Shown: in pieces, positions 7,208-25,189 of the stretch
Layout of the letters: each line of letters opens with the position of its first letter
How positions within the stretch are numbered: the first letter of the stretch is position 1
Sequence record: OQ174503.1
Direction: 5' to 3' (one strand)
DNA from: Escherichia phage REP4
DNA: 64,000 nucleotides
Made by a program: the position numbers and the translations under genes
The notes under the pieces: model-generated
What the model was told of the DNA's origin: nothing
Database searches by the model: none
The model's input: the letters and a program-made list of their open reading frames with translations, nothing else

Positions 7208-7263
7208 AACTTTATGAAAAATGCTTTAAAACTTTCATGGTATAATGAATCTAAGTCCTTCCA

Positions 7264-7866
7264 TTATAGATTAAATCCTTCAAAATCAAGAGTATAGATA
7301 GTGTATGTTGAATGCTTTTTATACTCATATCTATCTGCAATTCTAAATACACTTCCAGCTGGTATCATTACTTCCTGTTCATCTGAAACTAATTCCATAT
7401 TACGATAACGATGGCTATCCGGAAACTTAAAACTCGGACTATATTCTTTACAACGTAGAGCTTTTATAGCATACTCCTGAAAATTAAATACCATAGGAGC
7501 TTTGAATTCAAAAATAACTTGCGTGTTGTATTCTAATCCAGAAGCAAAATGCAGAGCTATATTTTTATCATATGAAGCTGATACTACTTTATCAAATGTA
7601 ATAATATCAATTCCTTGATTTAACACCTGCTTAGTTTCAACTGGAACACCTCTCCAAAGAGGTTTATCGTTTGGAACCAAACGAGATTTGATTATTTCAT
7701 TTAACCAAGAATGATCGTCTGGCTTATTAGTAATACAATGAATTAAAAGTTCAATTTCAGATAAATTAAATCCTTCGGAAAGTAATTCTTCACGAATAGA
7801 AGCACGCACCGATGCATCCATTGATTTGATTTTAAAATCTTTTAATTGCATTGCTGAATATTTCAT
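7264..7866 (-). CDS. modA: ADP-ribosyltransferase ModA (200 aa)
   Basis: 200 aa, tandem with a paralog; Arg and Ser-x-Ser features of R-S-E ADP-ribosyltransferases; T4 gene order. Confidence 0.7.
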   Translation of the reverse strand: MKYSAMQLKDFKIKSMDASVRASIREELLSEGFNLSEIELLIHCITNKPDDHSWLNEIIKSRLVPNDKPLWRGVPVETKQVLNQGIDIITFDKVVSASYDKNIALHFASGLEYNTQVIFEFKAPMVFNFQEYAIKALRCKEYSPSFKFPDSHRYRNMELVSDEQEVMIPAGSVFRIADRYEYKKHSTYTIYTLDFEGFNL

Positions 7867-8486
7867 TCAACTACCTCAATATCATACACTTTAAATGTTC
7901 CAAACGAATCGTGTAATTTTTCTTTTGAAATAGAAGTTATTTTATACTTTCCAATTGGAATCATCCATTCTTGTTCATGTACAATCATCATTAAGTTATC
8001 AGTACGTTCTGAATCTAATCCATCAGTATCTTCATATGTATACTTAAACTCAGTATTAGGAGAAGAAAGTATAATATCGCTGATATGGTCAGAGTAATTA
8101 AAAGCTTTATCAGTTTTTAAGCGAAGTACTATTTCAGTGAAATATTCAGCATAAGAAAAAGAACACGCTGTATGCAAACTAGTAGTAAATGAATCTACTC
8201 TGTTCGTTGAAAACACTTCTCCAACTTGTAAATCTTTAATGAGTTCTTTTGTCGATTTTGATATACCACGATATAACTGATAAGGTGATTCAGTTAAATG
8301 CTTTTTAACGATTTTATTCAACTGCCGATGAAGAGCTTCATTCTTTTTGGCTTCCATACATTGCCAAAGAACTGACTGTTCAAAGTCAGTAAATTTTTCA
8401 CAGACCTTTTTATACATATCATATTGAAAATCAACGCTTTCAGCTTTTATAGATAACTGTTCAACATCTGCGGGATTAATAATCAT
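7863..8486 (-). CDS. modB: ADP-ribosyltransferase ModB (207 aa from ATG at 8486)
   Basis: Paralog of ModA; trimmed start has GGAGG Shine-Dalgarno; 207 aa. Confidence 0.7.
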   Translation of the reverse strand: MIINPADVEQLSIKAESVDFQYDMYKKVCEKFTDFEQSVLWQCMEAKKNEALHRQLNKIVKKHLTESPYQLYRGISKSTKELIKDLQVGEVFSTNRVDSFTTSLHTACSFSYAEYFTEIVLRLKTDKAFNYSDHISDIILSSPNTEFKYTYEDTDGLDSERTDNLMMIVHEQEWMIPIGKYKITSISKEKLHDSFGTFKVYDIEVVE

Positions 8487-8511
8487 GATAGCCTCCATAT
8501 ACTTCAGAAGC

Positions 8512-8542
8512 TATCATATCATTGTTAGGAAGGAAAGTAAAC
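8512..8542 (-). promoter_or_regulatory. T4 early-type promoter (minus)
   Basis: gtaaac at 8537-8542 with TATGAT-like -10. Confidence 0.45.
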
Positions 8543-8553
8543 AACTTTTTGAA

Positions 8554-8736
8554 TTATTTTGCCCAGGGAGCCCAGGGCGGAGGGTCAAGATGGTATGAAG
8601 CTAGTTCTTCTAGAAGAGCATCTGGGGCTTCAATTCCATAATTCTGTAATACTATACGGTACTCTTTCTTATAATCATTAGAATCATTCTGGATATTCGT
8701 AGAATGATTATCTTCTAACATCTCAAATAAATCCAT
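8554..8736 (-). CDS. Hypothetical protein (60 aa)
   Basis: ORF track. Confidence 0.45.
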   Translation of the reverse strand: MDLFEMLEDNHSTNIQNDSNDYKKEYRIVLQNYGIEAPDALLEELASYHLDPPPWAPWAK

Positions 8737-8744
8737 ATTAATTC

Positions 8745-9215
8745 CTAGCGATAAAAACCAAAATAACGATTAGTTTCAATAATCTTTCTTTCTTCTTCGG
8801 ACATTCTCCAGCGTAGTCCAACATCAAAATGAGCCCAGACCATCTTAACGAATGCATTTATATCTTTAATATCTTCAATAATGAATGTTTTACTTTTAGA
8901 AGGTTGACTCGCTAATTTAACTTTATCGTCTTCAAACAGGTCAAAAAGACCATATTCATGAGCTCTTTTATAGCCTTTAATAGTTAAAGCTTCAGAAGAA
9001 GAAAATGGTGAATCAGTATTCTGCAAAATATCTTCAGTATGCTTTATAATTAGAATAACATTTTCTGGATATTTTCTTTCTTTTATATCTTTAATTAAAA
9101 TATCCGGATTTTCTGCTAAAGGAATAATTAATGAGCACTTTTTATCAAGTGTATTTACCGATTTACCTTCTTTAGACATAAATTCTATTGAATAATGTTT
9201 TGCTACTTCAATCAT
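8745..9215 (-). CDS. Hypothetical protein (156 aa)
   Basis: ORF track; GAGGAAA Shine-Dalgarno before ATG 9215. Confidence 0.6.
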
Positions 9216-9360
9216 GTGATTTCCTCTTGCCTACTAATGGGCCATCAGGAATTTTGTTTTCCTGAATGTATTTCTCATTTTCTTCCATCATTTTACTGCC
9301 AATTTTAAGAAGCAAATCCATTGCTTCATTTGCTTTAGCTTTAGCCTCTTCTAGCGTCAT
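9208..9360 (-). CDS. Small hypothetical protein (50 aa)
   Basis: Hand-translated [21 protein letters not shown]...; stop overlaps next start; below track cutoff. Confidence 0.35.
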
Positions 9361-9368
9361 ATCTCTGT

Positions 9369-9572
9369 TCACGATTTATCCCCATAGATGTCTCTCATCA
9401 ATTTAAGCGCTGAGCGTTCTAATTTCTTTTCTTTCTCAACGCTAATCATTGATTTCATCCATTCTTCTGATTCGTTCTGCATTTCTTTATTTGCTTGTTC
9501 AACCCAACCATCATCAATGTACATTGAGTTTGGTCTATTGAACCATTCAAACATTTTCTTCAGAACTTTCAT
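9369..9572 (-). CDS. Hypothetical protein (67 aa)
   Basis: ORF track. Confidence 0.5.
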
Positions 9573-10044
9573 TTATTTTACCTAAAACAACAGTAGGAGC
9601 ATCATCAAATTTATGAATTTTGAGTAAATTTGGATTTAAATTATTCCATAAAGAGGTAATAAAATATGATAGCGCATTTTCTTCTGTAATTATAAATTTA
9701 TTTCCCTTATCTATTTTCCAGTCATATATTGAATCATATGAATATAATGGCAGCGGTTTATTGTTATAATATGCTTCAGAAACATCAATATAGTTAGATT
9801 TAGTAAATGCTTGAATTGACATAAATGGAGAATTTCGTACAGTTTCAATAATTCCGATCTTTTTAAGTTTTATTTCAACATCTTCTGGAACTGGCATTGA
9901 AATAAAATCTTCTACTAGATACATGTTATTATCATATCTTTTATCAATCATTACTGCTACTGTAATTGGAACATCTTTAGCAAACGACATACTATTACTA
10001 CTAATATACATTTCAAACAAAATCGCTTCCATAATTTTCCTCAA
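9547..10044 (-). CDS. Hypothetical protein (165 aa)
   Basis: ORF track. Confidence 0.55.
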
Positions 10045-10382
10045 TCACAAGATGTAGATGAACAACTAGAATCACAAGAACTTCCACACGAATCGCCCGT
10101 CCATACATGAACAGGAACATTAGTGTCATATGAATTAGAACTAGACTGTGTATTCTGTGTATTAGATGATGTAGTAGGTGTTGACCAACGCCAAGGATTT
10201 TTATAATATTCTTGGGCTTCTTCATAAGTCATAGTAACTGCTTCTACTGTTCCATCTCCCATATAAACATATTCAACTACAGTTAAAGGAAGGTAGTCAT
10301 TTGAAATAGGAACTACGCCTTCTCCGGGAGTCGTAGAGAAAAAATCCGTAAAGAAGCTTTTAAACCAATTAAAGATAAACAT
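10041..10382 (-). CDS. Hypothetical protein with Cys/Ser-rich C-terminal tail (113 aa)
   Basis: ORF track; tail [15 protein letters not shown]. Confidence 0.55.
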
Positions 10383-10588
10383 TACAAAAAGCCTCTCTTG
10401 AATTCAACTTGCTTCTCGCCATAATCATATCGAATCTCTGCATTAAATTCGACAGAACCATCTGCATACATCATAAATGAATGCACAACAACTTCTGCAG
10501 ACCATGGCTGCAGTTCATATTTCTTCATTACATGCCGTGAAATGATAATATCTAAATCTTCATTTGGTTTAATCCAACGATTTAACAT
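10382..10588 (-). CDS. Hypothetical protein (68 aa)
   Basis: ORF track. Confidence 0.5.
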   Translation of the reverse strand: MLNRWIKPNEDLDIIISRHVMKKYELQPWSAEVVVHSFMMYADGSVEFNAEIRYDYGEKQVEFKRGFL

Positions 10589-10614
10589 AGTGCTCTCCTC
10601 TATAAGATAATTCT

Positions 10615-10644
10615 ATTATACCATTCTCATTTTGGAAAGTAAAC
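10615..10644 (-). promoter_or_regulatory. T4 early-type promoter with extended -10 (minus)
   Basis: attatacc at 10615-10622 (rc TGGTATAAT), gtaaac at 10639-10644, 18-nt spacer. Confidence 0.6.
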
Positions 10645-10651
10645 CAGTAAA

Positions 10652-10677
10652 ATGAAAAAGGACTCCCGGAGGAGTCC
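10652..10677 (-). terminator. Intrinsic terminator downstream of soc
   Basis: Minus-strand hairpin GGACUCC-UCCG-GGAGUCC followed by UUUUU. Confidence 0.7.
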
Positions 10678-10683
10678 TTGAAA

Positions 10684-10929
10684 TTATTCACCAGTTACTT
10701 TCCACAAATCTTCGTTTGCAGTAATCCATTTAGTACGTTGATTTTCTTCATATACTGTAGAATATGCTGCTTTTTCTGAAGGGAATGTCTGGTAATGAGC
10801 GCCAGAAATTTTGTGAACGTCAGAATAAAGAGGGAAAGCTACAGAAATTTCCTTTCCTTCAATTTTCTTATTTCCATCTAATTTCTGCTCAAACGTTTTG
10901 ATATTAACATAACCGCGAGTACTAGCCAT
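10684..10929 (-). CDS. soc: Small outer capsid protein Soc (81 aa)
   Basis: MASTRGYVNIKTFEQKLDG... matches T4 Soc as recalled. Confidence 0.85.
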   Translation of the reverse strand: MASTRGYVNIKTFEQKLDGNKKIEGKEISVAFPLYSDVHKISGAHYQTFPSEKAAYSTVYEENQRTKWITANEDLWKVTGE

Positions 10930-10959
10930 GTAATTCTCCTTTTATTTAAATTACATGAT

Positions 10960-10967
10960 TATTTATA
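10960..10967 (-). promoter_or_regulatory. T4 late promoter TATAAATA (minus), ~30 nt upstream of soc start
   Basis: Plus strand reads tatttata at 10960-10967. Confidence 0.5.
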
Positions 10968-11137
10968 TCAGTCTTCAACGAAAACTTGCGCCAGGAATTC
11001 ATGTTCATCTTGAATTTGTTTATATAAAGCCATTACAGCATTTATATTAGAGCTATCTACTTTAAGCTGATAAGCATACAACTCGTATAAATTAATTAAA
11101 GCTTTTTGACGTCTAATAAATTCTTCTTTGGATATTT

Positions 11138-11341
11138 TCATTTTGAATGTTCTATAATTAATTTTAAGGCTTCTTCGCTGACAAAAATTTCATCAGGACC
11201 TTCTTCTACAACCCAATCAACCACACGAAGCTGATTAGATAAGAGCTCACATACGAGCTCCTTGTCATAATTTTTAAATAGCTGGTCAATACGTTTCTTG
11301 CGGGCTTTCTTAAGCTGGCGTTTATTTAAACGAGCCATCAA
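11138..11341 (-). CDS. Hypothetical protein (67 aa)
   Basis: ORF track. Confidence 0.5.
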   Translation of the reverse strand: MMARLNKRQLKKARKKRIDQLFKNYDKELVCELLSNQLRVVDWVVEEGPDEIFVSEEALKLIIEHSK

Positions 11342-11856
11342 TAACCTCGGTCTTGACGAGCGAAGTTTTCAGCATTTTTCAGATAATAAAGTTTAAAGAT
11401 TTCTTCAGCCGTAAGACCGAGACCTTGGAACATGTTCAGAACGAAATGAAGAATATCAATCATTTCAAATTTAATTTCCAACTGGTCTTGCGGAGACAAA
11501 TCAGTAATTAGAGTTTCACGACGTTCACCATGCTGTGACTTCCAAGGTTTCCATACAGCAGATGCATCTTTTTCGCCATTGCTCATACCGCCAAGAGATG
11601 TCAGAAGTTCACGGAATTCATCGTCAATATAATCTTTCTGATTACGCAGCCAATCAACAACTTCACCAGCAGTAGCCAAATCATCAGGATGACGGTTATA
11701 TTCAGGTTTATCTTTAGCTAAACGAACCTGCAAAGATTTCTGCATATCAAGCATAACCTGCAGCGGGTCTTTTTCATCACCGAGAATATCCCAGTATTCG
11801 TTTTGAGCTTTATCAGCGCCTTCGATCAGTTGTGAACATTCATTAAAGTATGCCAT
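11338..11856 (-). CDS. 56: dCTP pyrophosphatase gp56 (MazG-like), 172 aa from ATG at 11856
   Basis: MAYFNECSQLIEGADKAQNEYWDILGDEKD... MazG-type fold; trimmed to ATG with AGGAAA Shine-Dalgarno; ~171 aa as in T4. Confidence 0.8.
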   Translation of the reverse strand: MAYFNECSQLIEGADKAQNEYWDILGDEKDPLQVMLDMQKSLQVRLAKDKPEYNRHPDDLATAGEVVDWLRNQKDYIDDEFRELLTSLGGMSNGEKDASAVWKPWKSQHGERRETLITDLSPQDQLEIKFEMIDILHFVLNMFQGLGLTAEEIFKLYYLKNAENFARQDRGY

Positions 11857-11927
11857 TATTTTTCCTTTCAATTCATGGATTAGTAGATTAATTATACAAT
11901 AAATATATAAAGCAATAAGGAGGACAT

Positions 11928-12128
11928 ATGGTACAAAAATTAATGGCACTTGTTAATGCCATAAAAGGTAATAAAAAACGTATAGCTTTTACTATTTCTG
12001 CTATGATAGGAATTTTACTTTGGAATTTTGTTTTATCGCCAGTAGCTATTGCTCATGGCGTTAGTATTCCAGTAATTACTCTTGATACATTCGTAGATTT
12101 AGCATTTGCTTTAGTTGGGTTAATTTAA
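11928..12128 (+). CDS. Small hydrophobic two-helix membrane protein (66 aa), opposite strand
   Basis: Intergenic plus-strand ORF with AAGGAGG 4 nt before ATG; stop overlaps primase stop convergently. Confidence 0.5.
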   Translation: MVQKLMALVNAIKGNKKRIAFTISAMIGILLWNFVLSPVAIAHGVSIPVITLDTFVDLAFALVGLI

Positions 12129-13153
12129 ATCTTAGCATATTTAGATAGCCGCATTTTAGCCATCAGCCCTTGAGCAATATTATTTTTCATATATTCCATA
12201 ATTTGTTCAGGGGTTGCACCTTCCTTTCTAATCATATCATTAACATCTTTTGATTTCCAGGGAGATTTATCCCAAAACATAACCCTTTCTCCTGCATCAA
12301 CCAATTTAGTCATTCGTTTAATAGTGTCAGGATGACGAGGTTCATTATCTAAAACCCATACACGTCTATCTTTAAATGGAACAATTTCTAGGTCTAATTG
12401 ACCACCTGTAATAGCTATACCATTTTCAATAAAAAGTGAATCTATAGGTCCTTCTAGAACATATACATCACCATCTTTAACCCGTTCAACACCATAGATT
12501 TTTGTTGCCTCAGGATAAGCTTTGATGGTGATATATTTTTGAGGAGCATCTTTCTTTAATGCGCGTCCTTGAAAAGACTCAGCTTTTCCATTAGCATTAT
12601 AAATTGGAATAACAAGACGAGGCTCAGATATTTCCTTTTTATATGTTCCTGGTGCTATACTATTAACTAATTTAGGCCATTCAGTTGTAAACCAAAGATA
12701 TTTCCATTTATCCTTTGGAATACAGCGAGCTTTTACGTATTTTATAATTGGATGGTCTTCCGCCAGTTTATCTAATCTAATGCATGACGGAAGAGATTTA
12801 ATTATTTTCTTCTCAGGTTGTTTAGGAAGTTCTTTAGGTTTTTCTACTGGACGACTTTTACCTTTTTCTTTTCTTATTTCAAAGATATACTCACGATATA
12901 AATCAGGTTCAAACTCCTTTAAATATATTCCGATTGGTGCATGATAGTTACAGTTATAGCAATGAATATTTCCTTCATTATTATCACCATAATACCATCC
13001 ACGGGCTTTATTTTGGTCGGTTTTTGAATCTCCACAAACAGGGCATCTAAACCGTAATTTAAAAGTTGAACTATTATTTACTTGTGTGAATTTAGGTAAA
13101 TGAGCTAATGCACGGTATGCAAACTCATTATCAATCCAAGGTATTGATGGCAT
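12125..13153 (-). CDS. 61: DNA primase gp61 (342 aa)
   Basis: N-terminal zinc ribbon CPVCGDSKTD...HCYNCNYH; 342 aa; adjacent to helicase 41 region. Confidence 0.9.
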   Translation of the reverse strand: MPSIPWIDNEFAYRALAHLPKFTQVNNSSTFKLRFRCPVCGDSKTDQNKARGWYYGDNNEGNIHCYNCNYHAPIGIYLKEFEPDLYREYIFEIRKEKGKSRPVEKPKELPKQPEKKIIKSLPSCIRLDKLAEDHPIIKYVKARCIPKDKWKYLWFTTEWPKLVNSIAPGTYKKEISEPRLVIPIYNANGKAESFQGRALKKDAPQKYITIKAYPEATKIYGVERVKDGDVYVLEGPIDSLFIENGIAITGGQLDLEIVPFKDRRVWVLDNEPRHPDTIKRMTKLVDAGERVMFWDKSPWKSKDVNDMIRKEGATPEQIMEYMKNNIAQGLMAKMRLSKYAKI

Positions 13154-13155
13154 TT

Positions 13156-13320
13156 TTACTCTTCTTTTTCTTTAGATTCCTCTTTTTTCTTTTTAGGAAT
13201 CTGTTCAGGACCTTTATTTACTACAGCGCCTGACGTTGTTCCAGTAGAGATATTTTCAGGATTACCACCTGAATCGCCAGCTACCATATCTTCTTTAATA
13301 AATTCTTTATATGTTTTCAT
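13156..13320 (-). CDS. Small protein (54 aa) with capsid-targeting-like N-terminus MKTYKEFIKE
   Basis: Hand-translated; AGAGG Shine-Dalgarno; stop 2 nt before primase ATG. Confidence 0.5.
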   Translation of the reverse strand: MKTYKEFIKEDMVAGDSGGNPENISTGTTSGAVVNKGPEQIPKKKKEESKEKEE

Positions 13321-13321
13321 A

Positions 13322-13948
13322 TTAACCTCTATTCATAAAAGCATTAAAAATTTGGTCATCAATAGAAACATTCACTTTAGACTGTTTTTCTGATGGTAAT
13401 TCATATCCACATATTACAATTTTATGATCAATATCAAAATACACAGAAGCAATATGATTAATGATGTTTTCAGTAAAGTCTAAATCAACATCAATATCTT
13501 TTTGACCACAGCCCAAAGGATAAATAATGCGAGTAATTCGATTATCTTTAACAAAGATTCCACCGATATACTCTGTGCTGCGTTCAAAGTCTACACGCCG
13601 ACGAAATGAAAAATATTCAGGCTCTTTATGAGCTCGGCTCATAGGACACAACGAGTAACTAGAATAAGAGATGTCAAATCCTACGCCTTCAATATGAGCC
13701 AAATTATCATGATTAAACCAATTATAATCGTACGCCAAGTCCATTAGATTATAATATGTGAAAGGCACCGGATTAACATCATTAGTCACAAGCATGTAAT
13801 TAGCAACTGCTATAATTTCATTATTTTTAACGAATACAAACCGTGATTGATGTGAATGACCTGGACCTGCGTTTTCACGATTAATGATATAACACTGGGC
13901 ACCTTTATATTTGTACGTGTCTTTGCACTTGTGCATTTGATAAAGCAT
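13322..13948 (-). CDS. Hypothetical protein (208 aa)
   Basis: ORF track. Confidence 0.6.
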   Translation of the reverse strand: MLYQMHKCKDTYKYKGAQCYIINRENAGPGHSHQSRFVFVKNNEIIAVANYMLVTNDVNPVPFTYYNLMDLAYDYNWFNHDNLAHIEGVGFDISYSSYSLCPMSRAHKEPEYFSFRRRVDFERSTEYIGGIFVKDNRITRIIYPLGCGQKDIDVDLDFTENIINHIASVYFDIDHKIVICGYELPSEKQSKVNVSIDDQIFNAFMNRG

Positions 13949-14241
13949 TATTCACCTACCACTTCAGCGATGATATTTTTATTATTGAAGTTTTTATCAC
14001 AATACAGAACGTAATTATACTGCATTACACCACCAGACTTAAGCTGTTTTTGTACTTCAGCTTTCATTTCAGGGCGATCACGCTCAACGATATTCATAAT
14101 ATCCGCTTCAATTTGAGTTTCAACTTCAGTCTGATCTGCAGTCATAGACCATTCACACAAATCTTTGTCATAACCCGCCATAGCAGGCTGAGCAGCGCAA
14201 GAAGATAAAGCAAAAATTGCAGCAAAGATAAATTTTTTCAT
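13948..14241 (-). CDS. Secreted periplasmic protein (97 aa), Spackle-like by position and size
   Basis: Signal peptide MKKFIFAAIFALSSCAAQPAMA; T4 sp lies between 61 and 41 (recalled). Confidence 0.5.
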   Translation of the reverse strand: MKKFIFAAIFALSSCAAQPAMAGYDKDLCEWSMTADQTEVETQIEADIMNIVERDRPEMKAEVQKQLKSGGVMQYNYVLYCDKNFNNKNIIAEVVGE

Positions 14242-14346
14242 GATAATCTCCTCAGTAGTTTATGTTTATATAGTATCTCAATTTTCAACAAAAGTAAACA
14301 CTAGTAGAAGCAAACAGACAAATTGCAATAATTGGTGATTTCAGTT

Positions 14347-14541
14347 TCATTCTTCTCCTCCTTCATGTTGATGAACATATTCTTTTTCAAGTCTAGAGCA
14401 CAAGTTTTCATATTCAACTAATAAAAGTGAATCAAGTGCGTTATTTCTATGCTGACACCGTTCTTGTAAAGAATCCATCTCTGAACGTTGTTCTTGTGTT
14501 AATAATTGATAACCTGATACTTTAGACATTTTGTTCTCCAT
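14347..14541 (-). CDS. Hypothetical protein (64 aa)
   Basis: ORF track. Confidence 0.45.
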   Translation of the reverse strand: MENKMSKVSGYQLLTQEQRSEMDSLQERCQHRNNALDSLLLVEYENLCSRLEKEYVHQHEGGEE

Positions 14542-14565
14542 TTACTCGTTTGTTTTGATAGGTCT

Positions 14566-14594
14566 ATAATAACATGTTTAAAACAAAAGTAAAC
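14566..14594 (-). promoter_or_regulatory. T4 early-type promoter (minus)
   Basis: gtaaac at 14589-14594; tataat/ataata at 14565-14571. Confidence 0.5.
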
Positions 14595-14848
14595 TATTTT
14601 ATTTCCTCAAGTTCGTTAATCAATAAAAGTTCTCTGACGCTAAAAACAAAGAAAAATGTGTTCCCATCAACCAGAGCATGACCGCTAATAGAACACCCTC
14701 TGCGGAATTTAGAAACTTCACAATCTAGAACTGTAAAAGGTTTTAATCCTATGACTTTAGCTGTGCGTCTATTCAGTTCACAACCACTCGCGAATTTTTC
14801 CAAATCTTCTTCTGATTTAAACTGATATTCTCTATTAACTAGCATCAT
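14594..14848 (-). CDS. Hypothetical protein (84 aa)
   Basis: ORF track. Confidence 0.5.
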   Translation of the reverse strand: MMLVNREYQFKSEEDLEKFASGCELNRRTAKVIGLKPFTVLDCEVSKFRRGCSISGHALVDGNTFFFVFSVRELLLINELEEIK

Positions 14849-14879
14849 TTTCTTTTCTCCGCGATTAGCTGATAGAATT

Positions 14880-14909
14880 ACTATAACACAACTCTATCAG
14901 CTTGTAAAC
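14880..14909 (-). promoter_or_regulatory. T4 early-type promoter (minus)
   Basis: gtaaac at 14904-14909; -10-like actata at 14880-14885. Confidence 0.45.
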
Positions 14910-14911
14910 TA

Positions 14912-15196
14912 CTATTTTACTAGCATCAATAGCTGTTTCTCTAACTTGACGATTTTACGAAAGTATCTTTTGCATTGGCGAATCTGTCGCTTCGTAGGGC
15001 GCACAGCAAACTTAATAAATTCCACTCGACCAAATGGAGGGCTTTCTTCTGCTGGAATATCTAACACCAATTCCCACGTATCTGCAACAAGTGCTTTGAA
15101 TTGAGTATTTTTCCTGACATTATATGGAGTAGGTTTAAATAAAACAATATGCATATTATCCTCGGCAATCCACTTCACATACTTTCTTGTCATCAA
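14912..15196 (-). CDS. Hypothetical protein (94 aa)
   Basis: ORF track. Confidence 0.5.
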   Translation of the reverse strand: MMTRKYVKWIAEDNMHIVLFKPTPYNVRKNTQFKALVADTWELVLDIPAEESPPFGRVEFIKFAVRPTKRQIRQCKRYFRKIVKLEKQLLMLVK

Positions 15197-15338
15197 TGAA
15201 AGCTTTAACTAATGCTTTATTAACTTCAGCATATTGAGTAGTAGCCCATTGAACGTCATCTTTCATCATTGTGATTTCTTTAGTAAACATGCTTTCATTC
15301 TTAAACCACCCCATAAAAACTACCTTTACCAATTCCAT
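15156..15338 (-). CDS. Hypothetical protein (60 aa)
   Basis: ORF track. Confidence 0.4.
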   Translation of the reverse strand: MELVKVVFMGWFKNESMFTKEITMMKDDVQWATTQYAEVNKALVKAFIDDKKVCEVDCRG

Positions 15339-15366
15339 AACAATCTCCTCATTTAACCAACAAGAC

Positions 15367-15396
15367 TACTATACCATAGTCTTGTCGGCTTGTAAA
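15367..15396 (-). promoter_or_regulatory. T4 early-type promoter (minus); -10 lies in the loop of a 7-bp palindrome
   Basis: gtaaac at 15391-15396; actatacca at 15367-15375 (rc TGGTATAGT). Confidence 0.5.
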
Positions 15397-16824
15397 CTAA
15401 AATTTTAATTCATTTGCCAAAGCATCTAACTGAGCTCGAGCGGATTCGTTTCTTTGATAGCGGTTCTGTTCAGCTTGTATCTGTTGTGAACCTGCTACTT
15501 CGTTCACTTCAGTTGGAGTAGAATCTTGTTCAATTTCTACCCATTTCTGATTTCCTTTTTGAACACCCATCAAAAACTTATTCCATTTATTCTTATCACC
15601 ATATCGTGATTTGATTTGCTTAATGAGTTGCTGTTCAGCCGCTGCTAACTCCTCGGTTTCAATGACCGCAAGCATAAAATCGGCTGTTGCTGGAAGACCG
15701 GCAGATTCTGCAATATCGCTCATGTTAACATCAGAAGAATCCCAAGCTTGCTTACCAACCTGTGCTGCAGTCCAAAGAACAGTTTCGGTTTCAACAGCCA
15801 GAGCACGCAATTCCTCTGCAATAGCTTTAACAGTTGTATAACTATTTTCTGAATAAACTCTGATGCGGCAAGATTTACAAATACCTAGATAGTCAACAAT
15901 AATGATTGTTGGAACAAAATTCTTCTTGAGCTTTAATTCGTTTAAAAGAGAACGAAATGTATTAGCGTCTGCTCCACCAGTAGGATACTGTTTAACGATT
16001 AAACGACCGAGAGTAGATTTCTCACGCCATTTTTCCATTTTTCCTTTATACTCAGCATAAGAAATATGCCCATCATCAATGTCATCAAGAGAAACATCGA
16101 GCATATTAGCGTCAATACGTTTAGCACAGACTTCTTCTGCCATTTCCATGGAAATGTAAAGAACATTATGACCGAGCTGTAAATAATCTGCTGCCAATGA
16201 ACATAGACCTAATGACTTACCAACGTTAACACCAGCCATTAAAACGTTCAGTGTTCCAGTCTCAGCTCCGCCTTTAGTAATTTTATTTAGAATTTTGAGT
16301 TTAAATGGAACCTTACGAGCTTTATTCATATAAGATAGCCAACGTGCTTCGTAGTCATCCATCCAATCATGGCCAACATAGCTATCAAATGAAATTGATA
16401 ATGCTTGACGCATGATGTCAGGAATAGCACCAACATCCGGCATTTTCTTATTTCGTTTTTCCGGAGGAAGTTCAGCATTAGTTTGAATTTCAATTATTTT
16501 AGACGTAGCATTAAACATCGCCCTTTGCTGAACATATTTTTCCGTTTCTTTTACTAACCAGCTGTGGTCTTCCGGAGAATCGGTTAGTTTTGAAATAAGT
16601 GTTTTTACACCAGAATATTCTGTTTCAGTAAATGAACTATTTTCTAATGCAACATTTAACGCATTAATAGATGGAACGCTATGGTACTCATTAACATGAG
16701 ATTTAATTAATTTGAATGTATTTTTAGCTGGACCACTTTCAAAATATTCTGAATCCATATATGGCCAAACTTTTGAAAAATAAGCTTGATCAAATATGAG
16801 ATGAGAAAGAATAATTTCTACCAC
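15397..16824 (-). CDS. 41: Replicative DNA helicase gp41 (DnaB-like), 475 aa
   Basis: Walker A GVNVGKS, RecA-like core; 475 aa; first codon is GTG directly after an in-frame stop. Confidence 0.9.
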   Translation of the reverse strand: MVEIILSHLIFDQAYFSKVWPYMDSEYFESGPAKNTFKLIKSHVNEYHSVPSINALNVALENSSFTETEYSGVKTLISKLTDSPEDHSWLVKETEKYVQQRAMFNATSKIIEIQTNAELPPEKRNKKMPDVGAIPDIMRQALSISFDSYVGHDWMDDYEARWLSYMNKARKVPFKLKILNKITKGGAETGTLNVLMAGVNVGKSLGLCSLAADYLQLGHNVLYISMEMAEEVCAKRIDANMLDVSLDDIDDGHISYAEYKGKMEKWREKSTLGRLIVKQYPTGGADANTFRSLLNELKLKKNFVPTIIIVDYLGICKSCRIRVYSENSYTTVKAIAEELRALAVETETVLWTAAQVGKQAWDSSDVNMSDIAESAGLPATADFMLAVIETEELAAAEQQLIKQIKSRYGDKNKWNKFLMGVQKGNQKWVEIEQDSTPTEVNEVAGSQQIQAEQNRYQRNESARAQLDALANELKF

Positions 16825-16833
16825 ACTTACTCC

Positions 16834-17178
16834 TTAAAAGAATTTAAATTTTTTCTTTGACCTTTTATTAAATGCATCTTGCAGTTGCATTGTAATACAT
16901 TTTTCTACATGAGGAGCTAACTCAGCTTTTCTTTCTTGGTCAAGAACAGCAAAGTCCATTACGACTTTTCCATCAACCCAATCTAATTTTGTCACATACA
17001 CAATGTGTGTAGAACCATCTTCTAGTTTAATGACAATCTCCTGGATAACATTTTCCATGGCAGATTTAATTATCTTAAGAGATTCATTAAAAAGACGTTC
17101 TTTTCTTTCTTCTTCCCCCTCCGAAGAGGGGGATTCGTCGATAATTTCTAGATCTAAATCTAAATCATCTTTATTCAT
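16834..17178 (-). CDS. 40: Gene 40-like protein (114 aa from ATG at 17178)
   Basis: Position between uvsX and 41 as in T4; track start is GTG, trimmed to ATG with GGAAG Shine-Dalgarno. Confidence 0.45.
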   Translation of the reverse strand: MNKDDLDLDLEIIDESPSSEGEEERKERLFNESLKIIKSAMENVIQEIVIKLEDGSTHIVYVTKLDWVDGKVVMDFAVLDQERKAELAPHVEKCITMQLQDAFNKRSKKKFKFF

Positions 17179-18352
17179 TAAATTCTTCCATATCACTTAA
17201 CTGATCTAGGTCAGTTTCTAAATCAGCTGCTGATTTGTTTTTACTTTCTGGAGATTTAAATTTTTCAACCTTTGAGTTAATCAATTCATCAACTTCAGCT
17301 TCAACAATTTCATTACTATCAATAGCACCTAACTGATAAGCACGTTTAATAGCATCTCGGAATGGCTGATGCTTAAATAAAGGACCCCAGAATGTAGTGC
17401 AATTGGTATCTTTTGCACGCCAAGATTTTTCTTCGCGAATCATCTCGCCGGTTTCTTCATCAAGAAATTCACGAGCATACCAACCATTTTTAGGTTTTAC
17501 CACAAATCCTAATTCAAGAGCCATATCTAACAATCCAGAATAAGGATCGATACCACCGTCAAATTTAACATCAATAAAAAATTTACTTTTTTCTTTAACG
17601 GTACGAGATTTTTCTACATTTAGAACAAATTGATACCCCTGAAGATCAGAACCATCTTTAATCTGGCGCTTACCGATAATGAATACAGTATCAGCCGAAT
17701 ACATTACGCCTGTACCACCTGTCATCACGGTTTTACTAAACATTTCAATTGTTTCAATTGTATGGTTAACCGCAACACATGGAATGTTTTTAATACTAAA
17801 ATAAGGAGTAACAATACGGAATAATGACTTCAGCGATTTAGCACGAGTCATATCTGCCACAGATTTTTCATTCAAGGCATCTTCCGTTTCTTTCTTAGAA
17901 GCCATATTACCGATTGAGTCGATAAATACAATAACTTTTTCACCGCGCTCAATAGCTTCAAGCTGATTCACCATATCAATTTTCAGCTGTTCAACTGACT
18001 GAATTGGCGTATGAATTACTCGTTCCGGGTCAACTCCCATGGATCGCAAATAAGCTGGAGTAATACCAAATTCGCTATCATAAAATAGACAAACCGCATC
18101 AGGATATTTGTTCAAATACGCCGCAACCATAGTCAAAGACATATTTGATTTAAAGTGTTTAGAAGGACCTGCAAAAATAGTTAAACCAGACTGCATACCA
18201 CCATCAATCGCGCCAGAAATAGCGATATTGAGCATTGGAATTTTTGTACGGATTACATCCTTTTCATTAAAGAATTTAGATGTAGTCAGTTCAGCAGTCA
18301 TTTTAGAAGTGGAAGCTTTAATCAAACGGGATTTTAAATCTGCAATAGACAT
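17171..18352 (-). CDS. uvsX: UvsX recombinase (RecA-like), 393 aa
   Basis: RecA fold, P-loop GPSKHFKS; size and position as T4 UvsX. Confidence 0.9.
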   Translation of the reverse strand: MSIADLKSRLIKASTSKMTAELTTSKFFNEKDVIRTKIPMLNIAISGAIDGGMQSGLTIFAGPSKHFKSNMSLTMVAAYLNKYPDAVCLFYDSEFGITPAYLRSMGVDPERVIHTPIQSVEQLKIDMVNQLEAIERGEKVIVFIDSIGNMASKKETEDALNEKSVADMTRAKSLKSLFRIVTPYFSIKNIPCVAVNHTIETIEMFSKTVMTGGTGVMYSADTVFIIGKRQIKDGSDLQGYQFVLNVEKSRTVKEKSKFFIDVKFDGGIDPYSGLLDMALELGFVVKPKNGWYAREFLDEETGEMIREEKSWRAKDTNCTTFWGPLFKHQPFRDAIKRAYQLGAIDSNEIVEAEVDELINSKVEKFKSPESKNKSAADLETDLDQLSDMEEFNE

Positions 18353-18429
18353 TCATTTTTTCCATAGGCATCATTATATTTTCCTCACTGGTTAAAGATA
18401 GAATAATTATAACACAATAAATTTAGGCA

Positions 18430-19272
18430 TTAATCGACTGCTATTGGATGAATAGCATTAAACTTATGAAACGCTTCTGATTTTTCTTTGCGCGAAACAC
18501 ACATGCGAAGAACCTTTAATGGCTCGTCTTCTTCACCTAATGATTTTCGTTTTTCAATATTAGAAGTTTTCCAACGAGCTTGCTCTGGAAACTCTTTATT
18601 GATTTGCTCAAGAGCTCTATTATGTTTTGAATTACTACGAATTGAACTACATCCGCCTGGAGCTTGTGCTTTTCCAGACACAACCAGATATTTGAACAAA
18701 GCCAAATGCGGATAACCCTGATTAATTAAATTGAGAAATGCATACATATCTTCGCATAAATCAATTTTTCCATACCCAATTTGTTCTGTAGTAAGTTTTC
18801 CGAGGTCATACCATGTATTCGTGAATCCATATGAATTTTCACGATAATTACCCCAAGATGAAGTAATTTTAAAAATAGGTAGACGAGCATGACCGTGATA
18901 ATACCCGCAATCCATGGCATCTTCAACGTATTGAATCAATTCATAGAACTGTTCACGAGTTAATTGATTAATTTTATCTACGCAGCGACGATCATCTTTC
19001 TTTCGCATTGAACTCATACGAATAGTAGTATCATCATCAATCATCCAAATTCGTTGACCTGCATACATATCAGTAATTGCTTTACGAGTTCCAGCAATTC
19101 CATTAACATCATCAGGAATAGTTATAATTTTAGCCCTAGACCCGTAAGCGTCATAATAAGCTTTTTCTTCATGTTCACGTACTACAATATGAGGTTCATA
19201 ATCAGTCGGAAACATATCAAGGGCAGAAACTGCCCCTACGCGTTGATAGCTTGGAATTACGAATTGAATCAT
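18430..19272 (-). CDS. GT-A-like glycosyltransferase (280 aa) in the beta-gt locus
   Basis: N-terminal FVIPSYQRVG resembles GT-A start; DDD (DxD) motif; unrelated to T4 beta-gt as recalled. Confidence 0.5.
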   Translation of the reverse strand: MIQFVIPSYQRVGAVSALDMFPTDYEPHIVVREHEEKAYYDAYGSRAKIITIPDDVNGIAGTRKAITDMYAGQRIWMIDDDTTIRMSSMRKKDDRRCVDKINQLTREQFYELIQYVEDAMDCGYYHGHARLPIFKITSSWGNYRENSYGFTNTWYDLGKLTTEQIGYGKIDLCEDMYAFLNLINQGYPHLALFKYLVVSGKAQAPGGCSSIRSNSKHNRALEQINKEFPEQARWKTSNIEKRKSLGEEDEPLKVLRMCVSRKEKSEAFHKFNAIHPIAVD

Positions 19273-20009
19273 TTCCACTCACCGTTATAATCTTTTTTCG
19301 CAATATGAGTTTCGCCAGTTTTCCACCAATGGTCAACCAAATAAAAATGACGGGAATACACATGAAGGCTACCGACATTCCATATAATGGAACCTGCTTT
19401 ATACTGACGAGTTGAATCACCTGCATTCAAATCAGATACTAATTTATCTAGTACATATTTTTGCCATGCATAATCATTACGGAATCCGAAGACCACGTCA
19501 TTTGAACGCATGTTAACCACTGCATTAATTTTCTTATCACGAATCAGGTACTGTACTGTATTAGTACACATGAAATCCGACATGCCATCTTTATTGTAGT
19601 CAAACTGCATGGATGGACGAGTATAAATCATGATACCGCGTCGAGAATCAGGATTTTGACCAAGTTCAGCTAAACACATATCATACTGGGCATAGTTATC
19701 TTCTGACCAGATGGCCCAACCATAATTCGAGTTAATTTCGCCTTTAGAAGATGCTACCTGCTGCCAAATCTTCGGCGTTTCACCTGGAATATCTTTAACA
19801 AACAAACTTTGAGACTTATACCATTCAAGTTCACGCTGAATGTATTCATCATTAAGAGCGCCAAAAATAAAAGGTTCATCTGCTACAAATGATGCACCAA
19901 TAATTTCAATAGTTTTAACACCGGTTTTATCAATTACGAAATCTTTTTCCTTTAATGCAAGACCCAAATCAAGACGGATTTCTTCAACTGTCATATAATC
20001 GTTAATCAT
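19269..20009 (-). CDS. 42: dCMP hydroxymethylase gp42 (246 aa)
   Basis: Thymidylate-synthase-like; 246 aa; position between the glycosyltransferase locus and imm. Confidence 0.85.
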   Translation of the reverse strand: MINDYMTVEEIRLDLGLALKEKDFVIDKTGVKTIEIIGASFVADEPFIFGALNDEYIQRELEWYKSQSLFVKDIPGETPKIWQQVASSKGEINSNYGWAIWSEDNYAQYDMCLAELGQNPDSRRGIMIYTRPSMQFDYNKDGMSDFMCTNTVQYLIRDKKINAVVNMRSNDVVFGFRNDYAWQKYVLDKLVSDLNAGDSTRQYKAGSIIWNVGSLHVYSRHFYLVDHWWKTGETHIAKKDYNGEWK

Positions 20010-20162
20010 TTAAACCTCAATTGATGCATTCATATTTAATTTGTAACAGTAATAAACTCCAACCTATAATAAGTGGCGGAATCATAAGAGGAACTGTTAC
20101 GCTATAGTATATACTTATTATAATCATCAAGATTAAAAGCAATACTGCTAAAATTTTGCTTT

Positions 20163-20414
20163 TCATTCCTTCTCTCTGATGATAATTACTTGATTTTGCT
20201 GTACAGATTTTTTAGTTTCACCCGCAATTGACCAAATAAATGTAATAAACCAACCAATGATTGACCAGTTAAACAGTAAAGATGTGAAAAAGATTCCTAC
20301 TGTCGATTTTGACCCACGCATCAAGGCGATGAACCATGGAAGCATGTATATAATAATAGCCAACACGCCTGAAACTAAAACCATAAAAATTGAACCTGCT
20401 ACTAAAGTTTCCAT
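20163..20414 (-). CDS. imm: Immunity (superinfection exclusion) membrane protein Imm, 83 aa
   Basis: Two transmembrane helices, 83 aa, between 42 and 43 as in T4. Confidence 0.6.
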   Translation of the reverse strand: METLVAGSIFMVLVSGVLAIIIYMLPWFIALMRGSKSTVGIFFTSLLFNWSIIGWFITFIWSIAGETKKSVQQNQVIIIREKE

Positions 20415-20421
20415 ATTTTCC

Positions 20422-20802
20422 TCACTTAGTCAAATTTTTTACGCATGAATTATAAGAATTCACTACATACTCCATCGGAGCATTTTTACCTGTACGCCAT
20501 TGGTAATTATTAGCCCAATTAGCCCAAAGCTCAGCGCAGTAGTTTTCAATTTTTTCTTCGCGTGTAATTACATCTGAATTACGATATGCTTGAGCAGATT
20601 CATCTGGGCGAATAGCTTCGTCAAAATTCGCCTGCATCTGTTCTACTGTCTGTTTTGGAGCTTCTTTATAACACTTGACGTTAGGATTATAAAATTTGCT
20701 TGAACAGTTTACAATTTTTCCTACATCAGACTGATTTACTACCGGTCCTTGAGCTACACATCCAGTAAGACCCAATACAATAACCAAAATAGCGATTTTC
20801 AT
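20422..20802 (-). CDS. Lipoprotein (126 aa)
   Basis: Signal peptide MKIAILVIVLGLTGC with lipobox. Confidence 0.6.
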   Translation of the reverse strand: MKIAILVIVLGLTGCVAQGPVVNQSDVGKIVNCSSKFYNPNVKCYKEAPKQTVEQMQANFDEAIRPDESAQAYRNSDVITREEKIENYCAELWANWANNYQWRTGKNAPMEYVVNSYNSCVKNLTK

Positions 20803-20812
20803 AATAATTTCC

Positions 20813-21049
20813 TCAAATACAAGTAGTAATTACTCCAGTAGTGCTTACACAGGTATTACCTAATTGAACACCCAACGTTCCATTAGTATTCATATGAAGA
20901 TTATCATCAATTTTTGTTGATACTTTACCATTCATGTGAATAATAGTATTAGATTCAATCACATTCTGAGTGTCATTTTCAATATCAATAAATGGAACAG
21001 TTGCTAATGCAACTAAACACGCTGCTAAACAACCATAAACAATTTTCAT
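20813..21049 (-). CDS. Small secreted protein (78 aa from ATG at 21049)
   Basis: MKIVYGCLAACLVALATVPF signal peptide; start preceded by cassette leader. Confidence 0.55.
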   Translation of the reverse strand: MKIVYGCLAACLVALATVPFIDIENDTQNVIESNTIIHMNGKVSTKIDDNLHMNTNGTLGVQLGNTCVSTTGVITTCI

Positions 21050-21140
21050 TTTATTCTCCAAATCCGTATCAGTTGATAGTTGTATAGTACCATGGAAGAA
21101 CGGGAATGTAAACAGTTTTGTGAAAAAAATTTTTAATGAA
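21050..21140 (-). repeat. Promoter-leader cassette copy with early promoter (GTTTAC at 21108-21113, TGGTACTAT -10)
   Basis: Near-identical to 47550..47650 and 62373..62470; ends at TTGGAGAATAAA-ATG. Confidence 0.6.
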
Positions 21141-21195
21141 TTTACAGGACCTAGAATCATCTATTTTTCCTAAGTATAGATTTATATTACTTGTA

Positions 21196-21218
21196 TGAAA
21201 AAGGGACCCGGAGGTCCC
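21196..21218 (-). terminator. Intrinsic terminator downstream of gene 43
   Basis: Minus hairpin GGGACC-UCCG-GGUCCC followed by UUUUU. Confidence 0.7.
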
Positions 21219-21231
21219 TAGATTTATTCTA

Positions 21232-23928
21232 TCAGCCAAACAGGAAGTCTAACGAAGCTTTTTCTTCATAGTCCATACCCGCCGATTCACACATACCCGC
21301 AAGCGGTTTAACAAACGATTTTTGGAACAAAGTTGAGTAGTCAATCCAAGATAGTACGTCAGAACGAATTTCTTTTGGAAGTTCCGTACCCGATGGCCAA
21401 GCAATGCACTTGTCACCAAATGGATTTCCTTCACGTAATGGAAGAACCATTACCTTATTTCCATCCAAAATTGGAGCTACACCTAAACCACTAACAGCTC
21501 GACGATAAGTTAACACACCACGAATATGGAACGGGCATTTAAATCCTGGCCAACCTTTATCGTCATATTTCGCTATATCGTTCGCGGTTTTTACTTCAGC
21601 AATAACTTTATAGTCAAGTTGACGATATTCTTTCTCAAAGTTCTTGTAGTATTCTTGGACAGACTCTTCGCCTTCCTGAAGAATACGACGAATACTTTCT
21701 TCGAGAGCTTCTTGTACTGCTTTTGGTGTTGAACTCTGCTGAGTTTCCATACCCATGATTTTTAGATGTGGTTCAGCAAATCGCTTATCTTCCATATCAT
21801 AAACGTTCAGAGCATAACGTTTTTTCGCTTTCCAAAATCCACCAACACCCTTTGAACCAAGTGGAGGGCAAGAAATAGCTTCACGGTCCATATGCATCAG
21901 ATGCTCGCGATTATTCATATAATCACATAACTCACGATATGCAACATCAATCATAGGTTCCATCTTTTTCTTACCAAACTGATTCATGAATTCAACTAAA
22001 TCATTTTGTTCTTTAAAGCGGTCAAGACCTACTTTTTCAATTACTTTATCTACACAAACATATACCGAATCAGTATCACCTGCTGCGATGAAATCTTCAC
22101 CATTAGTTCCACACACTTTATTTAGATACTCATTAATTTTACGAGCAATCCACTGAATACCAACTTGACCGAAAATTGTGATAGCAGTAGCATTTCGCAA
22201 ATCATAGTAACGGAAATGAATATTACCAAGAGCACCATAAAGACTGTTAATAAGAATTTTACGGTTCAGCTGATTTGTGTTAGCAAGTGTAGCTGCTTTT
22301 TCACATTCTTCGATCAGACTATTGAGAACAGATTCGGTGTAATTTGATAGTTCATTTAAGAAATCATCACTGAACTTAACATATCGTTCAACTTCTGGTT
22401 TAGTTGAGCAAGACCCTGCACCTTTCATAATAATCTTTTTAATAGCTTCGGCATTCATTTCTTCAGCGAACATTTTCTTTTTCCAATCTTTACGCTGGAA
22501 AAATACTTTAGCGATTTCCTTTGGAATGATACCTTCTTGGTGCTTATCATACATCCATCCATTCGGAGAGCAAGAATATTCATCACTTGGCTTAGGAGCT
22601 GTTCCTGCGATATATTCATGAATTGGATGAACTTTAAACTGCCCACGAATAGTCTCAGGACTAATGTTAACCTGACGAATAATGCTAGGATACAGAGACG
22701 TCAAGTCAAAACTCATAATGTATCGACGAGCAATCGGTTTAGGTTCAAACACAAATGCACCTGGAAAACTCTGTTTAACGTGCGAACCTTGTTGAGGAAT
22801 AACCTTATGTTCACCTTTCAGTGAGTTAAAAATAATAGCATCCCAAGTTTTAATAGGACTCATTACACCAGAAAAAGGCATTTTAGCATAATAAGACATA
22901 CTTAAAACTAGATCGATAAACCCACGAATTTTATCAATTGCTTGAACTGATTCTACGTCAATGATGTTATAACTAATGTATCGTTGATGATTAGTCTCAC
23001 GAAGTTTATTAATAGGACCATCGTACGGCAATTTACCTTTTTTGGTTTCGTGCTGAGCAACTGATTCCAAAGAGAATGATGGCAAATTAGTAAATGCGAA
23101 TTTTTTGTACAAATCTAAATAATCAAGAATAGATACGCCATCAATCGAATAAATTTCTTTGCTACCGTACATATTTTGAATTAGTTTAGATTTTACTCGA
23201 CCGATTGGAGAGAAGCGTTTCATACTACGTTCACCGAGAACCATTTTAACACGGTTCATGATATACGGAACGTCAAATCCCTCAATATTCCAACCGGTAA
23301 AAATAGCAGGTCGTTTCTGTTCCCAGAGATTAATATATTCCATGAGCATATCACGCTCATTATCAAATGGCATATAAATTACTCGGTCAAGAATTTCTTG
23401 AGGAACTTCATCACCACCTTCACAGTCAAGTTTAGCAGCTAACTTTGCATCCCATTTTGATACTGAACCGTACATTGAATTCAACAAATCAAAGACGTAA
23501 AAACGGTCGTCAATTGAATCATAATGAGTGATAGCATCAATTTCATATTCTGCTTTCATTGGGTCAGGAAATTTATCACCAGTAACCTCAATGTCACAGT
23601 TAGCTACACGAACAAATTTTCGGTCATAAACAATTTCTGAACCATATGTATCACTGATATAAGCGAGTTTAAAATCGTTCATACCGAGAGCTTCGAGACC
23701 GATGTCTTCCATTCGTTTCATCCAATCTCGTGCATCTTTCATTGATGGAAATTTTTGAGGAGCACAGTTTTTACCATAAATGTCTTTGTATTTTGACTCT
23801 TCCTTACAGTGCCTAAACATAGTCGGAAGATATTCTACTTCACGGGTACGTTCCTTTCCGTTTTCATCAATGTAACGCTCAACAATGTTATTTCCGACTG
23901 TTTCGATAGAGATATAAAATTCTTTCAT
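21232..23928 (-). CDS. 43: DNA polymerase gp43 (family B), 898 aa
   Basis: 898 aa; exonuclease and polymerase motifs including YGDTDS; T4-like. Confidence 0.95.
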   Translation of the reverse strand: MKEFYISIETVGNNIVERYIDENGKERTREVEYLPTMFRHCKEESKYKDIYGKNCAPQKFPSMKDARDWMKRMEDIGLEALGMNDFKLAYISDTYGSEIVYDRKFVRVANCDIEVTGDKFPDPMKAEYEIDAITHYDSIDDRFYVFDLLNSMYGSVSKWDAKLAAKLDCEGGDEVPQEILDRVIYMPFDNERDMLMEYINLWEQKRPAIFTGWNIEGFDVPYIMNRVKMVLGERSMKRFSPIGRVKSKLIQNMYGSKEIYSIDGVSILDYLDLYKKFAFTNLPSFSLESVAQHETKKGKLPYDGPINKLRETNHQRYISYNIIDVESVQAIDKIRGFIDLVLSMSYYAKMPFSGVMSPIKTWDAIIFNSLKGEHKVIPQQGSHVKQSFPGAFVFEPKPIARRYIMSFDLTSLYPSIIRQVNISPETIRGQFKVHPIHEYIAGTAPKPSDEYSCSPNGWMYDKHQEGIIPKEIAKVFFQRKDWKKKMFAEEMNAEAIKKIIMKGAGSCSTKPEVERYVKFSDDFLNELSNYTESVLNSLIEECEKAATLANTNQLNRKILINSLYGALGNIHFRYYDLRNATAITIFGQVGIQWIARKINEYLNKVCGTNGEDFIAAGDTDSVYVCVDKVIEKVGLDRFKEQNDLVEFMNQFGKKKMEPMIDVAYRELCDYMNNREHLMHMDREAISCPPLGSKGVGGFWKAKKRYALNVYDMEDKRFAEPHLKIMGMETQQSSTPKAVQEALEESIRRILQEGEESVQEYYKNFEKEYRQLDYKVIAEVKTANDIAKYDDKGWPGFKCPFHIRGVLTYRRAVSGLGVAPILDGNKVMVLPLREGNPFGDKCIAWPSGTELPKEIRSDVLSWIDYSTLFQKSFVKPLAGMCESAGMDYEEKASLDFLFG

Positions 23929-23966
23929 AGATATTCCTTAGTTTATAGCCCGAGTTATTAGGCTCT
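23929..23966 (-). promoter_or_regulatory. Gene 43 5' leader with putative translational operator hairpin
   Basis: Minus RNA GAGCCUAAUAACUCGGGCU directly upstream of the AGGAA Shine-Dalgarno; resembles recalled gp43 autoregulatory operator. Confidence 0.4.
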
Positions 23967-23986
23967 TGATATATTATACTCCAAAT

Positions 23987-24004
23987 AAGGGGCCGAAGCC
24001 CCTT
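23987..24004 (-). terminator. UUCG-tetraloop hairpin upstream of gene 43 (weak U-tract)
   Basis: Minus AAGGGGC-UUCG-GCCCCUU. Confidence 0.4.
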
Positions 24005-24008
24005 TGCT

Positions 24009-24266
24009 TTAAATTTCTATTGTACGACGCGATATAACGGACTTGCCATCTTTATTTGTGGTTTTGATAATCGCATGAAATGCGAGCTGGTGCGGGTAAA
24101 CTAATCGTTGGAATTCTTTTTGGAATTCTATTTGTTTATCTTCCGGGAGGTCAAAAACCAGTTGGGTAGAAGACAGACCATATGTATGTTTTAGATTTTC
24201 GAATATTAGAAAAGCTTCGGTAAACTGAATCTCTGATTGCGTCATATAATTTGCCTTAATTACCAA
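24009..24266 (-). CDS. Hypothetical protein (85 aa; may start at internal Met)
   Basis: ORF track. Confidence 0.5.
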   Translation of the reverse strand: MVIKANYMTQSEIQFTEAFLIFENLKHTYGLSSTQLVFDLPEDKQIEFQKEFQRLVYPHQLAFHAIIKTTNKDGKSVISRRTIEI

Positions 24267-24624
24267 TCGTATATTTAGGAACGAGTTTCCATTCGTGTTT
24301 TTGTTTAAAAGAAATAACTCGGAAGTTATTGGTTAAATCTTTCATAAAAGTTCTTTGACCAGGAACGATTTCAATCAGCCCCCAATCTTCTAACAGCCAC
24401 GCAATCGAATCACGACGAACTTCATCTTCTTCTGTCATTTCAACCTGACGGCCATCCATACGAAGCATTTCTTTAAAATGAACGATATAGTATAGTCCTT
24501 TTTTCTGGAGAATGTGGCAGGACTGATACAGAACTTTATCTTTATTATTAGCAATTCCCATACGAGTCAAAGTTTCTTTTACTTTCAGAAAATCTTCAGG
24601 TTTTTTAAGAGTAATTTCAATCAT
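24256..24624 (-). CDS. regA: Translational repressor RegA (122 aa)
   Basis: 122 aa, upstream of 43 and downstream of 62 as in T4. Confidence 0.85.
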   Translation of the reverse strand: MIEITLKKPEDFLKVKETLTRMGIANNKDKVLYQSCHILQKKGLYYIVHFKEMLRMDGRQVEMTEEDEVRRDSIAWLLEDWGLIEIVPGQRTFMKDLTNNFRVISFKQKHEWKLVPKYTIGN

Positions 24625-24625
24625 T

Positions 24626-25189
24626 TTACCATTCCAATGCTAGTTTTTTGAGTTGTTTCTGTTCTTTTACATTCTTAGTCACTTCTTTTAAAAAATCATC
24701 CGTGACTAAACCTTTTAGTTCTTTTAATACTAAAGGAAGTTTTCCATTTTTAGTAAGAATTGATTTATAGTTAATTGCATCATTTGTATTAACTTGATAC
24801 CGCTTAGCAAGTAACTTAATAATCAATACTTCAGTAGAATCTTCGACCAGTTTTGCCCATTTACCATATCTTTTACCCCGAGGAACAGCAGCCATCAGGT
24901 AATTAAAATGGGCTTCATCGCTTAAACCTGATCCAATTAAATTCATAGCATATACAGCTGGCATGCATTCAGGAAATTGTGATAATGCATTCTCAACCAT
25001 GTATTTTGAATAATCTTTTTGAGCAATAGAACATTTAGTTTTATTATTAATAGCTCCAATTATTTCAAAAAACTCATTTTCAGCTTTTTCTTTAAAAGAA
25101 TCAGCAGCAGATTGGACAGCTGTCCAATCTTTTGAATACCAAGCAACTTGATGCTCGTTTAATTGAATATCATCTTCAAATAAGCTCAT
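24626..25189 (-). CDS. 62: Clamp loader small subunit gp62 (187 aa from ATG at 25189)
   Basis: Track start is GTG; ATG at 25189 gives 187 aa; overlaps gp44 stop. Confidence 0.85.

Follow-up and report, generated by a model that had tools for sequence, protein, structure and literature searches.

A predicted T2/T6-type beta-glucosyl-HMC-alpha-glucosyl-transferase at the beta-glucosyltransferase locus of Escherichia phage REP4

The gene located between uvsX and gene 42 in the DNA of Escherichia phage REP4 almost certainly encodes, to judge by its sequence relationships, a T2/T6-type beta-glucosyl-HMC-alpha-glucosyl-transferase (ba-gt) taking part in a three-step pathway that leads to gentiobiosyl-hmC. 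The gene is already known: it represents the T2/T6 enzyme at its usual position, in an arrangement that is ordinary in T4-like coliphages. A preliminary description of the 64,000-nucleotide stretch analysed here (the window; record OQ174503.1) had pointed out a 280-aa protein carrying FVIPSYQRVG and DDD at this site. Both motifs are present in the open reading frame, FVIPSYQRVG—located close to the N-terminus of a protein that starts MIQFVIPSYQRVG—at residues 4–13 and DDD at residues 79–81. What had been missed is that the enzyme is long known from T2 and T6, and that the co-occurrence of an alpha-glucosyltransferase (alpha-GT) with a TET-associated glycosyltransferase (TAGT) is a common pairing.

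The homology comparison with T2 and T6 that had been proposed as a check places the protein firmly among these enzymes. It is 100% identical in amino acid sequence to the beta-glucosyl-HMC-alpha-glucosyl-transferase of PP01 (annotated as b-gt) and 98.2% identical to T2 ggt, with five substitutions relative to T2 and about six relative to T6, not counting a stop that is present in a single T6 record. The residues setting it apart from the T2 enzyme are R11 (H in T2), K92, I101, K226, and P251. Length, genomic slot, and the partner genes alpha-gt and gp42 are shared with T2, T6, and PP01, and no difference of substance exists between the enzyme of the window and theirs. At the DNA level, a 1.1-kb region containing the gene shares 99.8% identity with PP01; about 490 phage records match it at 90% or more, and in most of them the gene is named "beta-glucosyl-HMC-alpha-glucosyl-transferase". 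Relatives with 64–66% identity are found in T4-like phages of Klebsiella, Enterobacter, and Citrobacter, and one with 48% identity in Serratia phages. The protein matches PF20691 (TAGT) with 38.8 bits over residues 3–207, covering the whole profile at a gathering cut-off of 27.5 bits, and PHROG 842 with an E-value of 3.6e-89. A word-seeded search of a large protein database returned 11 homologue clusters including one distant member at 29% identity; as seen with this type of search, the homologue family is narrow. A weak Pfam match to PF01877 (RNA_binding; E = 0.15) lies below threshold and was dismissed as chance.

Table. Features of the ba-gt locus and of the modification genes in the window
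Feature	Position	Strand	Role or remark	Evidence
ba-gt / ggt / TAGT CDS	18430..19272	minus	280 aa	ORF list, PP01/T2 identity, PF20691, PHROG 842
ba-gt stop codon	18430..18432	minus		
uvsX	17171..18352	minus	flanking landmark, outside the modification pathway	PF21134 and PF00154; synteny with PP01, T2, T6, T4
gene 42	19269..20009	minus	dCMP hydroxymethylase, source of hmC for later glucosylation	PF00303; 96% identity to T4 gp42
a-gt	30909..32111	minus	would make alpha-glucosyl-hmC, the ba-gt acceptor	PF11440 (AGT), 2.4e-236, full profile
ATGA overlap	19269..19272	minus	gene 42 stop / ba-gt start	...TGG AAA TGA / ATG ATT CAA
FVIPSYQR motif	19240..19263	minus	residues 4–11, predicted to open the GT-A nucleotide-binding domain as its first beta-strand	alignment and model
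DDD motif	19030..19038	minus	residues 79–81, predicted DxD motif for metal/nucleotide-sugar binding, as typically found in GT-A enzymes	sequence, alignment, model

The coordinates of the locus are compiled in the Table. On the minus strand, ba-gt is followed downstream by uvsX and preceded upstream by gene 42; the ORF list also allows a 282-aa product if a GTG two codons upstream of the ATG is used. The order 42 / ba-gt / uvsX is common to the annotated records of PP01, T2, and T6, and the ATGA overlap with gene 42 is likewise annotated in PP01 and T2. Such an overlap of stop and start codons implies that gene 42 and ba-gt would be co-transcribed, and their translation is probably coupled. In T4 (NC_000866) the order reads uvsX, segA, b-gt, 42, the GIY-YIG homing endonuclease gene segA being inserted between uvsX and b-gt (T4 locus 3571..4236). 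This gene is absent from the window, where uvsX and ba-gt are separated by a 77-bp spacer (18353..18429), as is also the case in PP01, T2, and T6. Farther along, the interval from imm/imm.1 to gene 43 contains small ORFs (20017..20166 and 20813..21160, minus strand), among them a hydrophobic ORF of 49 aa and one of 115 aa, the latter corresponding to a shorter hypothetical protein in the PP01 annotation. Over positions 1..25000 of the window, the best matches are other Tequatrovirus phages (ESh26, KIT06, and Shfl2), which align piecewise, in several segments, at approximately 96% identity. Despite the 99.8% identity in the ba-gt region, the phage studied is thus not PP01 but a mosaic relative of it.

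In T4, the same genomic slot is occupied by beta-glucosyltransferase (PF09198, GT-B, PDB 1JG7). Enzymes of both types act on hmC-containing phage DNA, use UDP-glucose, and form a beta-glycosidic bond by an inverting mechanism. They differ in length (280 aa for ba-gt and 351 aa for T4 beta-gt) and in acceptor, which would be the glucose of alpha-glucosyl-hmC for ba-gt and is the hydroxymethyl group of hmC for T4 beta-gt. The position between gene 42 and uvsX, together with the label "b-gt" or "beta-glucosyltransferase" in some database records, might suggest a strongly diverged T4-type orthologue (GT-B, GT63) that places a single beta-glucose on hmC. However, the best BLASTP match to T4 beta-gt (NP_049658) spans 8 residues with an E-value of 3.3, a tblastn search of the complete window (64 kb) with T4 beta-gt as query yields no match at E <= 10, and Pfam assigns the protein to TAGT, with no match to PF09198 at E <= 1. 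A fold search retrieves GT-A enzymes and not the two-domain GT-B fold, in agreement with published work in which beta-GT and TAGT lack appreciable similarity and differ in fold (PMC13216743). A diverged T4 b-gt orthologue is ruled out by BLASTP, by tblastn on the whole window, and by the fold search, and its probability can be taken as practically nil. The two proteins are not homologous, and ba-gt therefore constitutes a non-orthologous replacement at this locus. The lack of resemblance to T4 beta-gt noted in the preliminary description is thus borne out, and the BLASTP comparison gave no alignment of the kind that would have overturned it, one revealing an ordinary if diverged orthologue.

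The assignment as a GT-A-like enzyme, made earlier from the motifs, agrees with both the fold matches and the Pfam family. In an alignment of nine full-length homologues with identities down to 32%, I6, P7, S8, Y9, and R11 as well as all three aspartates of the DDD motif (D79, D80, and D81; minus-strand DNA GATGATGAT) are unchanged throughout. An AlphaFold2 model built from this nine-member alignment (mean pLDDT 72.5, pTM 0.74; weak at residues 129–151 and 195–211) places a strand at residues 3–7 and the DDD motif after strand E74–77. The protein thus combines a GT-A fold, as judged by the fold search, with a DxD motif conserved in the alignment. A sequence search of the PDB returned chance matches only (E >= 0.9) and hence found no solved TAGT structure. 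Cellular GT-A enzymes of the GT2 family (e.g., TarP 6H1J, TarS 5TZE, BcsA 4P00, and RmlT 8BZ4) share 7–18% identity with ba-gt, which differs from them in having no membrane or polymerase modules and in its expected acceptor, a sugar on double-stranded DNA. Formation of a beta linkage from UDP-alpha-glucose amounts to inversion and is consistent with an inverting GT-A enzyme of the GT2-like kind. An AF3 model of the T6 TAGT has likewise been classified as GT-A, sister to GT2 (PMC13216743).

Whether the enzyme might transfer another sugar or use another acceptor, e.g., as an arabinosyltransferase of the RB69/Mosigvirus type, giving a hypermodification unlike that of T2 and T6, has also to be considered. 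TAGT-family proteins do occur in many phages devoid of alpha- or beta-GT, and several specificities are probable within the family (PMC13216743). Yet with 98–100% identity to the enzymes of T2 and PP01, an altered specificity is hardly to be expected. Moreover, the substrate of the arabinosyl pathway is 5-hydroxy-dC, the product of a separate synthase, and the pathway depends on a cluster of sugar-precursor genes (PMC13390438). Judged from gene 42 and alpha-gt, the window does not present the Mosigvirus context of 5-hydroxy-dCMP synthase and arabinose-precursor cluster: gene 42 encodes a T4-type dCMP hydroxymethylase and alpha-gt is present. The suggestion of another sugar, also put forward in the preliminary description, and with it an RB69-like arabinosyl type are accordingly given up as highly improbable, whereas the alternative made there of a gentiobiosyl-type transferase for a second sugar agrees with the near identity to the annotated T2 and PP01 enzymes.

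A T2/T6-type enzyme requires an acceptor, and the genome encodes the acceptor-making enzymes gp42 and alpha-gt alongside ba-gt; the alpha-gt had been located correctly from the outset. In the proposed pathway, gp42 would first produce hm-dCMP, which is incorporated at replication. In a second step, following replication, alpha-gt would transfer glucose from UDP-glucose onto hmC in the DNA in alpha linkage. Finally, ba-gt, as a GT-A-fold enzyme of the DxD type, would extend alpha-glucosyl-hmC by a further glucose, attached through a beta-1,6 linkage, to yield gentiobiosyl-hmC. The UDP-glucose dependence and the beta-1,6 specificity ascribed to ba-gt in this scheme follow the chemistry given in the literature and are carried over by analogy. 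For T6, it has been shown genetically that ba-gt makes gentiobiosyl-hmC: when the gene is deleted, alpha-glucosyl-hmC alone remains and the phage becomes more sensitive to Brig1, a glycosylase (PMC11078745, Nature 2024). From the near identity of the copies, we infer that the enzyme would be active in the phage studied here as well. Environmental Tequatrovirus phages carrying alpha-GT and a TAGT syntenic with T4 beta-GT contain hmC, alpha-glucosyl-hmC, and gentiobiosyl-hmC but no beta-glucosyl-hmC by LC-MS, either in a ratio of about 1:2:2 or as approximately one-third hmC and two-thirds gentiobiosyl-hmC (PMC13390438, AEM 2026). Since ba-gt and alpha-gt are present in the window and a T4-type beta-gt is not, the DNA of this phage most likely contains alpha-glucosyl-hmC and gentiobiosyl-hmC, in addition to hmC, but not beta-glucosyl-hmC; this prediction from sequence concerns the kinds of modified base, not the ratio of mono- to di-glucosylated ones. 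The expectation that the modification pattern departs from that of T4 is therefore supported, in the form of a T2/T6-type ba-gt that would act together with alpha-gt in place of T4 beta-gt. Such a constitution is by no means unusual. The three types of glucosyltransferase—alpha-GT and beta-GT as well as TAGT—share no sequence similarity with one another, and almost all phages harboring them pair either alpha-GT or beta-GT with TAGT, while alpha-GT and beta-GT occur together in only 6 of 753 genomes, T4 included (PMC13216743, NAR 2026). Alpha-GT with TAGT is thus the common pairing and T4 the exception (PMC13216743, PMC13390438).

How extensively the second glucose is added may depend on residue 11. 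Codon 11 (19240..19242) is CGC (Arg) in the window and CAT (His) in T2. The nine aligned homologues all have Arg11, as do T6, RB33, teqskov, and the window, and among the sequences checked H11 is limited to T2; outside seven T2 records, the exact T2 81-mer is found in SV76 alone. According to an observation made 60 years ago, gentiobiosyl-hmC accounts for approximately 5% in T2 and 72% in T6. It is conceivable, albeit doubtful, that R11H is hypomorphic and accounts for this difference, in which case the phage of the window, bearing Arg11, would be heavily gentiobiosylated like T6. If true, this would be a modest mechanistic refinement and not a new system. Conversely, the low level in T2, reached in spite of a 98% identical gene (PMC11078745, PMC13390438), could be taken to mean that ba-gt is weakly active here too and contributes little, leaving the DNA essentially alpha-monoglucosylated. 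This seems unlikely: the ORF in the window is intact and retains all invariant residues of the family, including R11, which is changed to H in T2 alone, and environmental Tequatrovirus phages with alpha-GT and TAGT contain 40–67% gentiobiosyl-hmC by LC-MS (PMC13390438).

One T6 record, MH550421, deviates at the neighboring codon: codon 10 of ba-gt (4951..4953 in that record, corresponding to approximately 19243..19245 in the window) reads TAG instead of CAA/CAG, and a shortened product of 261 aa starting from Met20 is annotated. The TAG is unique to MH550421, T6 record AP018814/NC_054907 having CAG (Gln), and probably arose by mutation in the particular stock or by an error in sequencing.

For the biology of DNA hypermodification, the identification of ba-gt in this phage adds nothing new; its value is practical only. 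The probable occurrence of alpha-glucosyl-hmC and gentiobiosyl-hmC, rather than the alpha/beta mixture of T4, predicts the fate of the phage when confronted with host defences. Alpha-glucosyl-hmC is the target of the Brig1 glycosylase, which gentiobiosyl-hmC blocks in vitro, and enzymes of the GmrSD/BrxU type target both alpha-glucosyl-hmC and gentiobiosyl-hmC. The modification pattern also predicts how the DNA would behave with restriction enzymes and sequencing chemistries. Both predictions are relevant where a T4-like phage close to PP01, a phage of O157:H7, is to serve in therapy or diagnosis.
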